Below are positions 51,001 to 64,000 of a stretch of 64,000 bases of DNA, piece by piece. Position numbers: made by a program. Origin of the DNA: Escherichia coli (GTDB taxonomy: Bacteria > Pseudomonadota > Gammaproteobacteria > Enterobacterales > Enterobacteriaceae); NCBI RefSeq assembly GCF_009931435.1, contig NZ_CP043414.1; one strand, 5' to 3'. How positions within the stretch are numbered: the first letter of the stretch is position 1; the number at the start of each line of letters is the position of its first letter.

Positions 51001-54000
51001 CGGGCGTGAAGCAATCAGCAGGTAATATTAATGGCAAGACCAGTAGGTTCTTTAAACAAACGAACAATATCAGCAAATACGACAACTCCCGGAGAGGTAA
51101 AAAGTTTTTCACTTGAGCACTTCTTAAAAAAATGGAGACGAACAAAAATGGGGCGACATACCTGGAAAGTATTGCTACCAGATGATGCTAAAAAGCAGAA
51201 ATAGTGTTCCAGGCCTGAAAGGGATGAGAATCAGTATCTGTGTGTATTTATAACATCTTCTTGAAGAGGCTGGAGATTGTTAGTCCATTAGTATAATCGA
51301 TATTCGTGTTCCTGCGAATATGCAGGCTACACCAGATATATGATTGCTACCGAATTTCATCAGTTTGATGAAATTACGCATCATACTGCGGGTTTTTCTC
51401 ATTAACATTAACGAAAGTGAATGGACTCAGACAAGTAGTGACCGGCGCAATTTCGCTAAGTATCAAATACAAAGAACGTTCTCTTACTTTCTGCGATGGC
51501 CTTTCCTTCGGAAAGGAAGTGACGATTAAGTACCGAAAAATGTGATACACATATTATTTTTATGGTGAATCACCTGATAGGATTTGCCATAAATGAATGA
51601 AAAGCTGAGTGTTAATAAATGAGTAAGAAGAAAATTCCTTTTGAAAATGAAGAGTTCATTACTTACCGGGCATTACTTCTGAGTATTGACTTTGTTAAAA
51701 AACTGGTTATAGAAATGTCTGATGAAGATTTAAATAAGGTTAAGGAAAACTTTGACATAGCTATTCAGCAACGTAATGAGCGAAAGGAAAATATGAAAGC
51801 TATCAAATCACTCATGGATGAACATGGTATATCTCTGGAAGATTTTTATTGTGAATTTGGCAAAAAATCACAGGCAGGCAGAAAAAGTGTGTCAGGAAGG
51901 CATAAATACGAGTATGACGATAACGGTAAAAGAATGTACTGGAATGGACAAGGACGTCGGCCTAAGGCCATAGCAGAGGCTATAAAAGCCGGAGGTTCTC
52001 TTGATGATTTTCTTATATCTCAGGAAGTATCATCTGGTCCTGATTATGAATAACAGCAATATATATTTTGATCTGTATTAATATCAAGAAATATATAGTA
52101 AACACTTCTCCGGAGTTGATATATTATCGGCAGGGAATGAAAATGCCTGACTTCATGCTAATATATGGCAATAAAGATAAATGAGTTATACTGTAGAGTT
52201 ATGAAATAACGATAGTGATAAGAGCCAGTCAGCGAGACTGATTGTTTTATCTGTACTGGCAGCAGGCAGTTTACCATGGCTTACTGCTTCAGCTTCTGAA
52301 TCTGTGTTGATGATATTTATCTGTTTATAAGGCAAGGCTTGTCTCTGTGAGTTGGTAATCTTTATCCCGGGATAGCTTTTCTCTGTATTTTTAGTATAGC
52401 CAGTAATCGATTACTCCTGTATGCGCAAAAATATAGCAACTCATCCATGGTAAACATGTCAGCTTTTACCTACATATAGATAAATTCATATTTCACGATA
52501 TACGACCCAATTTTATTAACACGAGCTGTTACCCATACACCTGTCATCCCCTGTTTATGGTGACTGCGCGGGAACTCTTTATTTGTACAAAGTTGTATCC
52601 ATCTGGAAGTGTTTTGATCTTTCAACCAGAGTCCCGCTTCACAATGTCCATACTTTCCTCTTGATGGTCCCGGAAAAACAACATCATATTCAGATTCATA
52701 GCTAATAACCTTATCCGGAAAAAGATAAACACAGACATCGTAACAGTTCAGACTCAGTATAAATCCAAGACAAAATCCCCCCGTGAATGCATTTAATAAA
52801 TACTTTAATGTTCTGTTAAAGGTGCGGATATAAAATGCATAAATAAAAGAAAGAGAACCGGTGGTTATACCGGTGCAAAAATATGTTGTCCATTCAGGTA
52901 CCGTATTTTGTAAAACAGTATAATGAGATATGGCGGATGCCCACAACATATACCAGCACAAACCACCTGCAATAAGATATGTTATTGCTGTGGAAAACCA
53001 TTTCCTGTATTTATTTTCAGGGTGATTGTTTTTGCCCATCAACGCATTTCCAGAATATTTAAAAATAACCTGTCACCGAAACAGAATAAAGGCGCAATAA
53101 CCATAGCGGGAAAATATGCGCCTCTGGTAATCGACAGTGTTACTTCAGACAGTGAGTTTCCCATTCCTTGACTGCAAATGTATCCATCATACCTGAAATA
53201 TAGTCAACCACTGCTCGTTTTTTGCTGATTTTAAATATATAGGAATCTGGTTGGGGTAAGGTGAATTTAAGTTCAGGAGGCAGAAATTTATAATTCTCTC
53301 CTTCATTGTAAAAGTCATATAAATCCCTGATTATTTTATTTCCCCTGAACTCATAGGTGAGGATATTACGTTTTCGCATGATGACTTTAAAGAGAAGTTT
53401 TTTGAGCCCTTCGGATAACGCATTCAGTTTCCCGAATCCCAGTTCCTGAAAACCATTCAGGTTCGTTACTACAGAAATATCTGCAACGAGGCGATTGACA
53501 ATATTTGAAGTTAACTCCTTGCGGAATATGATGGCAAATTCTTCTGAGGTTTTCAGTAAGTTAGCCTGAAAAGCGGTGTTTCTCGACTGAGTAACGATTT
53601 CCCTGAACTGTTCCCTCGCTCCCCGGAATTCGTCAGAAATCTGAAACTCATATTCAATATCTTCAATCGTGACCATGTTCCTGCTAAGGGCATCTTCCAG
53701 GTCATGCGCGGCATAGGCAATCTCATCCGCGAGATCCATTATCTGCGCATCAATCGTTTTCTCTCCGGGATTCAGATCGAGCTGATTTTCAGCAAGCAGG
53801 TTAATGTAAAAATAGTAATCATCATCATAAATGAACTTGCCGGCAGTAGCTGCAGCGCGGGGGATGGGATACTTAACAACCGAAAGTAAACTACGGTGAG
53901 TCAGATTTAATCCGTTGCAGTATGAAAATTTCTTCTCCAGTTTTCTCAGGATACGTAGCGCCTGTGCATTGCCTTCATAGCCGCCGATTTCTTCAGACAG

Positions 54001-63000: not shown

Positions 63001-64000
63001 GCAACTGATTGATGATTTTAAAGGGCTGGATGAAAGCACCAACAAAGAGCTGACCATCGCTATCTCCGTTGACATGCTCGATACCGGTATTGATGTCCCG
63101 GAAATTGTGAATCTGGTCTTTGCCAAACCGGTCAAATCAAAAGTGAAGTTCTGGCAGATGATTGGCCGTGGTACGCGCCTCTGTCCGGGGTTGTACGGTT
63201 ACGACGATAACGGCAAACCTCTGGATAAACAGAAATTCCGCATTTTCGATCACTGGGGCAATTTTGAGTATCACGAACTGCATACCGAAGAGGCCGAAGT
63301 CACAGCGACAAAATCGCTTGCACAAAAACGCTTCGAAGCGTGGGTTATGCTGGGGGCCGCTGCGCAACGTAAATTCGACAAACAGGCGGTGGATTTAGTT
63401 GCTCACCAGCTACGCGAGCAAATCAATGCACTGGATGAAAAGTCGATTGCCGTCCAGGAAAAGTGGCATCAAAAAGCGCAGTACAGCGATGAAAAAGTGC
63501 TGCGCCAGCTTTCCCCGAAAACACAGCAGGATTTGCTATCTGTCCTGGCCCCGCTGATGCAGTGGCTGGACGTGCGCGGGCAAAGCGACGCTATGCGCTT
63601 TGATATGGATATTCTGGCGGCGCAAACTGCCCGTTATACCAACCCGGAAGAGCTGGATGTGCTCTGGCCGGTCATCGTCGAAAAAGTGGAGCGCCTGCCG
63701 CCGCATTTGGCGCAAGTCCAACAGCAAGGACCGCGGATCAATCAGCTTCGTGATTTAGGCTGGTGGAAGCAGGCCAGCCTGGAAGAGCTGGAAGATATCC
63801 GCATTCATCTGCGCGGCATCATGCACCTGATGGAAAAAGACGCGACGCCGAAATTTGGTTCGATACAGGTGGATATTACCGAAGATGCGAACCTGATTCA
63901 GACGGAAAACCGCAAAACCAACATCCGCTCGATTGACTTCAAACTCTATCGCCAGCAGGTGCAGGGAGCGCTGGAGCCGCTGTTCCAGCAAAATCCGGTG

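Follow-up and report, generated by a model that had tools for sequence, protein, structure and literature searches.

Do the uncharacterised genes in a crowded part of an Escherichia coli genomic island form a defence system and, if so, which of them belong together? We addressed this question in a 64,000-nucleotide stretch of contig NZ_CP043414.1 (RefSeq assembly GCF_009931435.1), here called the window, whose segment from 51.6 to 64 kb had been described in an earlier note, made from the sequence alone, as a defence hotspot. That note listed an H-NS paralog, a dGTPase-like gene with a membrane protein, an IS3 element, a ThyA-like pair, a pair formed by a HigB-like gene and a helix-turn-helix (HTH) metallopeptidase gene, a MazG-like open reading frame (ORF), an ISL3 remnant and a type I hsdR. 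Our ORF map and the annotation of E. coli RX24 place all of these genes about where the note had them. Four of them form a single conserved cassette, which is our main subject: a thymidylate synthase (TS)-family gene, a gene of aGPT-Pplase clade 3 (aGPT-Pplase3), a gene encoding an Xre-type HTH protein fused to an M78 metallopeptidase (the M78 gene), and a small gene for a 108-amino-acid (aa) protein with a predicted HigB-type fold. We think it fairly probable that the selC island carries, together with a dGTPase and a type I restriction-modification (R-M) system, a cassette that joins a toxin-antitoxin (TA)-like switch to a base-modifying effector and acts by abortive infection.

A four-gene cassette of two convergent, coupled pairs

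In the window, the TS gene (55852..56832, + strand; 326 aa, WP_000174035.1) is followed on the same strand by the aGPT-Pplase3 gene (56829..57773, + strand; 314 aa), and the gene for the 108-aa protein (58855..59181, - strand) and then the M78 gene (57776..58858, - strand; 360 aa) converge on them from the other strand. Both within-pair junctions, TS/aGPT-Pplase3 and 108-aa/M78, are ATGA overlaps. The stop codons of the aGPT-Pplase3 and M78 genes are 2 nt apart (window 57771-57778), and a terminator scan of the window detected no terminator-like site between the two genes. Because the ORF ends also abut or overlap across loci, the convergent transcripts of this arrangement should overlap, perhaps with a regulatory role. 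Upstream of the TS gene, a consensus scan located a promoter-like site (TTGACT-18-AATGAT; 55792..55821, + strand), whose TTGACT and GGTGGTAATGAT blocks are conserved in four lineages, namely the window, E. coli ET151, Enterobacter and Providencia. A search for operators found no inverted repeats at seed 6 in the two cassette promoter regions.

A scan of one genome per species with aGPT-Pplase3 returned 246 loci, 80 of which were retrieved and analysed by searching all of their stop-to-stop ORFs with the window proteins using phmmer. These loci span Proteobacteria, Bacteroidota, Acidobacteriota, Chloroflexota, Planctomycetota, Actinomycetota and Verrucomicrobiota. A TS-family gene is present in 76/80 loci, and three of the other four have a contig end at its place. 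It stands directly next to the aGPT-Pplase3 gene in 43 loci and 0.7-1.5 kb upstream of it in about 30, where an extra gene fills the gap. The HTH-M78 gene is present in 78/80 loci, both misses being at contig ends, and it converges on the aGPT-Pplase3 gene in all 78 loci with downstream sequence. The stop-to-stop ends of these two ORFs range from a 22 nt overlap to 30 nt apart in 74 of the 78. A small ORF upstream of the M78 gene was detected in 61/80 loci, and the MazG-like gene in 1/80. Gene calls with Pfam labels show that the order is kept in Vibrio cholerae, Bradyrhizobium, Providencia, Salmonella, Shewanella and a metagenome contig, and M78 homologues share contigs with aGPT-Pplase3 homologues, their identities diverging in parallel.

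Since the M78 gene is convergent in 78/78 testable loci, the TS gene is linked and both pairs are coupled by ATGA overlaps, the ThyA-like pair and the HigB-like/HTH-peptidase pair, which the earlier note had treated as two modules, are one four-gene cassette. Across phyla, the cassette is inherited as one unit, and it consists of two convergent pairs, each translationally coupled. Scattered paralogs lacking conserved linkage, the picture that the note had named as speaking against a hotspot, are thus not what we observe here. The note's reading of the region as a defence hotspot has held up, as this linkage is conserved far beyond E. coli and the TS protein is also singled out by DefensePredictor (see below).

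Several cassettes contain additional genes (loci are numbered L). In 28/80 species (L023, L024, L031, L034, L036 and others; e.g. L036:7186-8001) the extra gene between TS and aGPT-Pplase3 encodes a protein of about 266 aa with the conserved motifs LGLNPSNREF, CHLDLIPYAT and GFNHNIQSSFGV. The motifs LGLNPS and GFNHNIQSS led us to consider it a uracil-DNA glycosylase-like protein, an idea that neither Pfam, PHROG nor PDB profiles supported. Eight loci (e.g. L055:6815-7141, L071:2775-3089 and L072:6850-7149) carry, in or beside the cassette, a gene for a protein of about 100 aa (MAVYVDN..W..WCHL.AD; phrog_4887, 7e-20), which is presumably DUF4031. Finally, Rhizobiales-type cassettes (L056, L070, L078, L081, L084, L090, L091, L093) have a 121-137-aa gene past the small ORF, on the M78 strand (e.g. 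L090:10410-10826), that matches phrog_14118 and phrog_8593 (1e-50), and five of these loci encode a divergent version of the small ORF that phmmer had missed.

The predicted effector enzymes and their accessory

Which reactions might the TS/aGPT-Pplase3 pair perform? The note had called the TS-family protein ThyA-like. Its best PDB match is the CMP 5-hydroxymethylase MilA (5b6d; 1.6e-41, residues 26-304, including the C-terminal extension), while the best genuine thymidylate synthase in the PDB reaches 1e-18. In MilA, Asp186 specifies cytosine, with Asn at this position specifying uracil, and Ala176 and Lys133 specify ribose, with Ser and Arg specifying deoxyribose (PMC5175136). Among 70 cassette TS homologues, the nucleophile C157 as well as E67, S178, D188, H218 and Y220 are invariant, and position 130 is Arg in 63/70 and Lys in 7/70. 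Asp188 occupies the position of ThyA N177 in the window protein and in 70/70 homologues; the dUMP-type Asn, a feature of the phage thymidine pathway, is absent. The window enzyme is therefore like the CMP hydroxymethylases MilA and BcmA in its TS fold, its Cys nucleophile and its cytosine-specifying Asp, but differs from them at the ribose residues, where the invariant Ser178 replaces Ala176 and Arg130 replaces Lys133, both of the deoxyribose type. Because it is closest to MilA and its cytosine and deoxyribose residues are conserved in this way, we predict that it is a dCMP C5-hydroxymethylase and not a ThyA-like producer of thymidylate.

The relatives of MilA and BcmA are enzymes of secondary metabolism (PMC5175136), and one could accordingly imagine that the cassette does not defend at all. 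It would then be a TA-stabilised module that makes a small molecule derived from 5-hydroxymethylpyrimidine (an antimetabolite resembling bacimethrin or mildiomycin) or has some other metabolic or competitive role, and its location in an island would reflect accretion at a hotspot. Many loci indeed have no recognisable defence neighbour, and selC islands hold unrelated cargo as well (H-NS, fimbrial regulators, an eptA-like gene). Yet the ribose-specifying residues of MilA and BcmA are replaced in the cassette enzymes (Ser in 70/70 and Arg in 63/70), none of the methyltransferase, kinase or export genes that typify such pathways is conserved alongside the cassette, the partner of the TS protein is the homologue of a DNA enzyme, and the DefensePredictor log-odds of the TS protein are 7.6. 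We consider a role outside defence improbable.

The second gene of the pair, which the note had taken for another ThyA-like protein, encodes a member of the aGPT-Pplase3/ADDT family (Pfam matches of 5.5e-90 and 1.1e-58) with about 3,900 homologues in the protein collection. The aGPT-Pplase/ADDT family comprises phage amino-acid:DNA transferases that act on 5-phosphomethyl-dU (5-PmdU) in DNA; the clade-2 transferases require 5-PmdU made by a DNA kinase, and have an essential Cys with a nearby Glu (PMC8989533, PMC11472151). The window protein contains an invariant motif, E296-D297-x-x-C300-N-W-Q-K, which recalls the essential Cys and Glu of clade 2 by likeness and not residue by residue. In its AlphaFold2 (AF2) model, with a predicted local distance difference test score (pLDDT) of 93, the predicted fold resembles the DNA-bound phage 5-PmdU:DNA glycinyltransferase and helix-hairpin-helix (HhH) glycosylases; against PDB sequences, neither the single sequence nor a profile gave a significant match. 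No match was found by tblastn in 50,697 phage records and ten plasmids, so clade 3, judged by these records, is a cellular family, unlike clade 2. We also considered the cassette as a remnant of prophage hypermodification genes and rejected this: clade 3 is encoded in none of the phage records, and the cassette invariably comes with the M78 pair.

The window thus shares an aGPT-Pplase/AADT-family transferase with the phage pathways of thymidine hypermodification (Lee et al. 2021, PMC8989533; PaMx11 gp46, PMC11472151), but it departs from them in several respects. Its protein is of clade 3 instead of clade 2 and lacks phage homologues in the records searched; the window lacks the 5-hydroxymethyl-dU (5-hmdU) DNA kinase and the pyridoxal phosphate or radical S-adenosylmethionine tailoring genes; the base-specificity position of its TS protein is Asp, the cytosine type, and not of the uracil type; and the cassette is always coupled to the TA-like pair.

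In phages, the same enzyme families protect the phage's own DNA (PMC8989533, PMC11472151). By analogy, the cassette could mark host or island DNA with a modified cytosine against restriction, in which case the Xre-M78 pair would be a transcriptional regulator only. The cassette repeatedly adjoins type I R-M genes in Enterobacterales, which would suit such protection, and other bacterial DNA-modification systems also reside in islands. However, a pre-replicative hydroxymethylase with no sequence-specific part would replace C globally, and this would need both the exclusion of dCTP and tolerance by the replisome and McrBC-type enzymes. Moreover, no nuclease that depends on, or is blocked by, the modification is conserved among the recurrent neighbours of the cassette, and the obligatory TA-like pair better suits a dangerous, tightly repressed effector than a constitutive modification. 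Self-modification is therefore, in our judgement, quite unlikely.

The MazG-like ORF announced by the note is present at 59325..59588 (+ strand), divergent from the gene for the 108-aa protein, and encodes an all-alpha protein of 87 aa; the label MazG, which is the RefSeq name, found no significant profile match. The protein has no Pfam match even at E <=10, no NCBIfam match and no single-sequence PDB match, and a profile of its family returned just three matches in the PDB, all of them MazG-family chains (1vmg, 2gta and 5ie9) with non-significant E values of 0.27-1.2. The motif E42-E43-x-G-E46 is conserved in the family, whose 67 proteins are mostly from Enterobacterales. In ET151 and Providencia the gene stays beside the cassette, and it is a lineage-specific accessory confined to Enterobacterales. 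Consequently, the note's count of three independent nucleotide enzymes needs correction: the TS-like and the MazG-like gene are part of a single cassette lineage, and the dGTPase alone is independent. The 121-137-aa gene of the Rhizobiales-type cassettes was considered as a member of the MazG-like family and rejected (hhalign probability 0.3%).

The combination of a predicted dCMP-specific hydroxymethylase of the TS family with, in Enterobacterales, a small all-alpha protein resembling NTP pyrophosphatases recalls the dCMP hydroxymethylase gp42 and the dCTPase gp56 of phage T4. The comparison with gp56 is drawn from the all-alpha NTP-pyrophosphatase superfamily. The version in the window differs in being encoded by the host, in having neither a dNMP kinase nor glucosyltransferases, in the weak assignment of its MazG-like member, and in the homologue of a DNA transferase that lies downstream.

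The predicted switch, a model and the case for defence

The M78 protein combines an N-terminal Xre/HigA-type HTH with an M78 (ImmA/IrrE) metallopeptidase domain (Pfam Peptidase_M78). It matches the PADLOC profile PD-Lambda-2_B (3.3e-30; residues 15-341 against profile positions 60-378 of 402), as well as the RosmerTA RmrA and CapP models of PADLOC. Its active-site residues H261-E262-x-x-H265, H269 and E287 are at least 95% conserved among 79 homologues.

The gene for the 108-aa protein begins with a TTG codon; the RefSeq record of RX24 does not annotate it, and gene calls in other assemblies start at an internal ATG and give 92 aa. R11, C14, D38 and W93 are invariant in the family, and the first two lie upstream of the ATG of the 92-aa call. 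As R11 and C14 are conserved and the first beta-strand is confident in the structural model, the TTG start and the length of 108 aa are supported as correct. The AF2 model (pLDDT 95) was compared with the PDB by Foldseek, and the top 40 matches are almost all toxins of the RelE/ParE superfamily (HigB, YoeB, YafQ, ParE), led by YoeB/ParE and Proteus HigB, with TM-scores of 0.6-0.74 and a best E of 6e-3. This argues for a RelE/HigB-type predicted fold.

A pair of this kind occurs in PD-lambda-2, a validated three-gene abortive-infection system that consists of a HigB-like A, an Xre-peptidase B and a third gene; B is toxic alone and rescued by A, and the third gene is required for defence (Vassallo et al. 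2022, PMC9519451). In both systems, a small protein, HigB-like in PD-lambda-2 and with a predicted HigB/RelE-type fold in the window, is encoded immediately upstream of, and coupled to, a fusion of an Xre-type HTH with a C-terminal metallopeptidase; the 360-aa window protein matches the B profile almost end to end. The 108-aa protein differs in having no sequence match to PD-Lambda-2_A, and the position that follows B is taken in the window by the convergent aGPT-Pplase3 gene of the TS/aGPT-Pplase3 operon.

Our model starts from gene order, coupling, conservation, folds and active-site residues, and from these we infer the remaining steps. From the architecture of PD-lambda-2 A and B, the HigB-fold protein and the Xre-M78 protein would act as repressor and infection-triggered switch, possibly as a toxin-antidote pair, in which the HTH represses and the M78 peptidase would respond to infection by analogy with that system. 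The ImmA/IrrE and CapP families offer a further analogy for an M78 switch. The TS/aGPT-Pplase3 pair would be the effector. The TS enzyme would convert dCMP to 5-hydroxymethyl-dCMP, and in Enterobacterales the MazG-like protein, as a pyrophosphatase, might hydrolyse dCTP and so supply dCMP, as T4 gp56 does for gp42. We hypothesize that dCTP would then fall and that 5-hydroxymethylcytosine (5-hmC) would enter the DNA made during infection, where aGPT-Pplase3 (Cys-dependent, with a predicted HhH fold) would flip 5-substituted pyrimidines out for conversion or excision. Replicating phage DNA would be made unusable and the infection aborted.

Stated in its most specific form, this model is a T4-like cytosine replacement that is released by infection and marks mainly the new viral DNA with 5-hmC, after which aGPT-Pplase3 converts or excises bases with no need of a DNA kinase, and type IV restriction of the McrBC kind may act too. 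We regard this specific form as rather doubtful. If true, it would be the first defence by enzymatic hypermodification of invader DNA, and aGPT-Pplase clade 3 would gain its first function and substrate.

The same two enzymes may instead work on free nucleotides. MilA acts on CMP and is followed by the N-glycosidase MilB; in a similar manner, the TS protein and aGPT-Pplase3 would irreversibly destroy dCMP, fed from dCTP by the MazG-like protein, and starve the phage with no modification of DNA. Such a sink for the nucleotide pool would parallel the dCTP deaminase and dGTPase defences. The homology of aGPT-Pplase3 to DNA transferases, its predicted likeness to a DNA-bound enzyme and the predicted dCMP specificity of the TS protein are the observations to be set beside it. 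We see this as a possibility of limited weight and as the chief rival to a base-modifying effector; self-modification and a role outside defence rank below it.

Further evidence for a defence role of the cassette comes from its distribution and from prediction. It occurs in 255/5426 complete E. coli genomes (~4.5%), chromosomal and single-copy, at selC, at leuX and elsewhere with different flanks (an arginine-deiminase operon, a second integrase). Thus, the cassette is patchy in distribution and associated with islands. Its neighbours in other genomes include type I R-M (Providencia, ET151), Shedu (Bradyrhizobium, L088), HipA (Vibrio), a P4-like element with DUF6988 (Shewanella), a Septu-like AAA_15+HNH pair (L101), a retron-type reverse transcriptase (L080), and PDC-M26A with a DzbB-like protein (L031), and integrases lie beside other cassettes. 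The association with defence genes is real, but not universal. In Table S10 of DefensePredictor (Science 2026, PMC13092281), WP_000174035.1 is a 'predicted novel defense gene' with mean log-odds of 7.63, and aGPT-Pplase and MazG are among the predicted, unvalidated defence domains of that study.

The nearest validated E. coli system in its enzymes is DS-4, which consists of a TS protein, a dNMP kinase, a 5-hmdU-kinase-like protein, a TIR protein and a hypothetical protein (PMC13092281). Both are island-borne bacterial systems built around a divergent TS-family enzyme and phage-type DNA-hypermodification proteins, and the two TS proteins are homologous (29% identity, 1e-28). DS-4 TS has Asn at the base-specificity position, the uracil type by the rule of PMC5175136, whereas the window TS has Asp. 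Furthermore, the partner proteins of DS-4 are unrelated to aGPT-Pplase3, the window has neither the kinase nor the TIR gene, and DS-4 has no M78 or HigB-fold pair. The cassette is a new variant composed of known parts and predicted computationally.

A number of observations weigh against an abortive-infection cassette with a base-modifying effector. The main weakness is that no kinase gene occurs in the cassette or among its recurrent neighbours, whereas clade-2 enzymes need one. From sequence, a hydroxymethylase and a methylase cannot be told apart. On the side of the switch, the window has no C (P4-antitoxin-like) gene and no neighbour that matches PD-Lambda-2_C; the 108-aa protein has no Pfam match at E <=0.001 (the best is HigB-like_toxin, 0.025, in 1/24 members) and matches no PADLOC HigB model, and its family consensus, by inspection, has no C-terminal Tyr-His of HigB. 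The MazG label is weak, as it rests on source annotation and motifs, and any role of this gene cannot be core, because it is missing from most lineages. With a panel of single sequences (type I R-M, integrase, Shedu, HipA, Septu, P4 GPA and DUF6988) that is too insensitive to quantify enrichment, homologues of type I R-M, integrase, P4 or Shedu lay within 8 kb in 12/80 loci only. An immediate neighbour with a PADLOC match was seen in 3-4 of 15 randomly sampled loci, a figure from a 30-ORF sample contaminated by spurious antisense ORFs of high-GC genomes, in which 10 plausible proteins were scanned. The cassette is not among the 94 units tested with DefensePredictor, where the sole 'thymidylate' entry is DS-4 (PMC13092281), and the literature that we searched holds no experiment on it; earlier papers may already describe the neighbourhood of clade-3 genes. 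Lastly, the dGTPase of the island scores below both NCBIfam cut-offs for anti-phage dGTPases, NF041026 and NF003701 (284.7 against 400 and 252 against 383).

The cassette brings together an Xre-peptidase/HigB-like module as in PD-lambda-2 and the enzymes of phage DNA hypermodification, two subjects that have hitherto been studied apart. If the cassette defends, it would be a tractable E. coli model for infection sensing by Xre-M78 switches and for the role of aGPT-Pplase clade 3, possibly with a kinase-independent 5-hydroxymethylpyrimidine chemistry that would be useful for 5-hmC labelling, and it would test whether bacteria weaponise base modification. The predictions are falsifiable: dCMP as substrate, and C157, C300 and H261/E262 as catalytic residues. 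In addition, the gene model of the 108-aa protein is corrected here.

The selC island and its other cargo

How does the cassette sit among the remaining genes? By nucleotide comparison, E. coli RX24 (NZ_CP182136) is 99.9% identical to the window, and its RefSeq annotation extends beyond it. Past hsdR, the order in RX24 is hsdM, hsdS, an AAA_15 ATPase with a 298-aa partner, more cargo, an integrase and tRNA-Sec (selC), so that the island ends with the integrase and selC beyond the equivalent of the window's end, as the note's assignment to a selC island implied. The full 12.4-kb region is found at >=80% coverage in 183/5,426 complete E. coli genomes. The segment from 51.6 to 64 kb is variable cargo of the E. 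coli selC genomic island, built by integrase and insertion sequence (IS) events, and it contains three separate units: a stand-alone dGTPase, the conserved cassette (with the MazG-like accessory in Enterobacterales) and a complete type I R-M system. PADLOC profiles, run on the window proteins and on the R-M genes of RX24, matched the dGTPase, the 360-aa HTH-M78 protein and the type I R-M trio, and gave no match for the TS gene, the aGPT-Pplase3 gene, the 108-aa ORF, the MazG-like ORF, the H-NS paralog or the membrane protein. The name defence hotspot fits a mobile, IS-scarred selC island whose cargo is mostly defence or defence-like (dGTPase 1e-109, type I R-M, AAA_15 ATPase and the PD-Lambda-2_B homologue).

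The dGTPase gene (53140..54393, - strand; RefSeq start 54372, giving 410 aa) encodes an HD-domain dGTP triphosphohydrolase paralog that matches the PADLOC dGTPase profile at 1.4e-109, TIGR01353 with 317 bits (cut-off 152), and Pfam HD and HD_assoc. Its family matches make it a candidate single-gene defence by nucleotide depletion, of the dGTP-draining kind. Defensive dGTPases were discovered in the same context, as HD-domain dGTPases beside type I R-M in islands, and membership of their clade is defined by at least 45% identity to Sp-dGTPase (Tal et al., bioRxiv 10.1101/2021.04.26.441389); the window dGTPase differs from them by its scores under the curated anti-phage cut-offs. It shares the island with type I R-M, a linkage that is repeated in 183 E. 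coli genomes, and it was found by phmmer in 0/80 cassette loci. It is thus an independent unit, unlinked to the cassette. Next to it, a hypothetical protein of 189/190 aa (52470..53042, - strand) has 2-3 hydrophobic segments, with Kyte-Doolittle peaks near residues 20 and 82-91, and no match in PADLOC, NCBIfam or PHROG. The earlier note had paired this membrane protein with the dGTPase. As a conserved partner it was rejected, since its gene is absent beside the same dGTPase in L002, L006 and L010.

At the right-hand end of the window, hsdR (61013..64000, + strand) starts with an ATG at 61013 and stays open to the window end, covering the first 996 of 1137 codons of the type I restriction subunit. 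In RX24, PADLOC identifies the full trio as REase_I (2.2e-273, full-length hsdR), MTase_I (6e-193, hsdM) and Specificity_I (2e-132, hsdS). The type I R-M system is therefore a complete, canonical hsdRMS, with hsdM and hsdS, both of which the note had expected past position 64000, lying beyond the window itself and read from RX24. The dGTPase and the type I R-M system are ordinary.

Two IS remnants flank the cassette. An IS3-family element with a transposase pseudogene (54523..55684, - strand; a 288-aa OrfB ORF, frameshifted in RefSeq, Pfam rve and HTH_21) stands between the dGTPase and the cassette, where ET151 and Providencia have an integrase instead. The C-terminal remnant of an ISL3 transposase (59891..60433, - strand; NF033550, 4.1e-29, profile positions 259-368 of 370; incomplete and frameshifted in RefSeq) lies between the cassette and hsdR. 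E. coli ET151 (L102) carries, beside tRNA-Leu, a cassette variant 79.5% identical to the window copy, in the order integrase, TS, aGPT-Pplase3, M78, 108-aa and MazG-like genes, and then type I R-M genes with a DUF4268 gene among them. Together with Providencia (L016), this points to an older island core of integrase, cassette, MazG-like gene and type I R-M, and the IS3 and ISL3 elements of the window look like later insertions that interrupt it.

The remaining cargo is less closely tied to these units. The H-NS family paralog (51619..52053, + strand; 144 aa, WP_000038246.1, Pfam Histone_HNS) scores 1.6e-17 against the StpA/H-NS models of NCBIfam, under the cut-off; it is island cargo, not a defence gene, and lies outside every defence system identified here. 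Between it and CP4-like genes, positions 50384-50725 (- strand) hold the 3' part of a ProQ/FinO-family gene, which is frameshifted according to RefSeq. A 5.6-kb segment of the window (43000-48600) is missing from RX24, where an IS3 stands in its place; it comprises CP4-57-like genes (a WYL regulator, a YfjP-like GTPase and a YagK/YfjJ-like protein) and a region of 34-37% GC, and it includes a 376-aa orphan ORF (44927-46057) with no NCBIfam or PADLOC match.

Beyond the window end, by about 3.3 kb and straight after hsdS, RX24 (L001:30688-33206) encodes the AAA_15 ABC-type ATPase (540 aa) and the 298-aa protein, which has no match. The ATPase matches the PADLOC profiles PDC-M55A (1e-40), NsnB (3e-37) and AriA (6e-22), and the two genes are likely a candidate defence pair embedded in the R-M locus. 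In some strains (L009), a SIR2_2 gene replaces this pair after hsdS.

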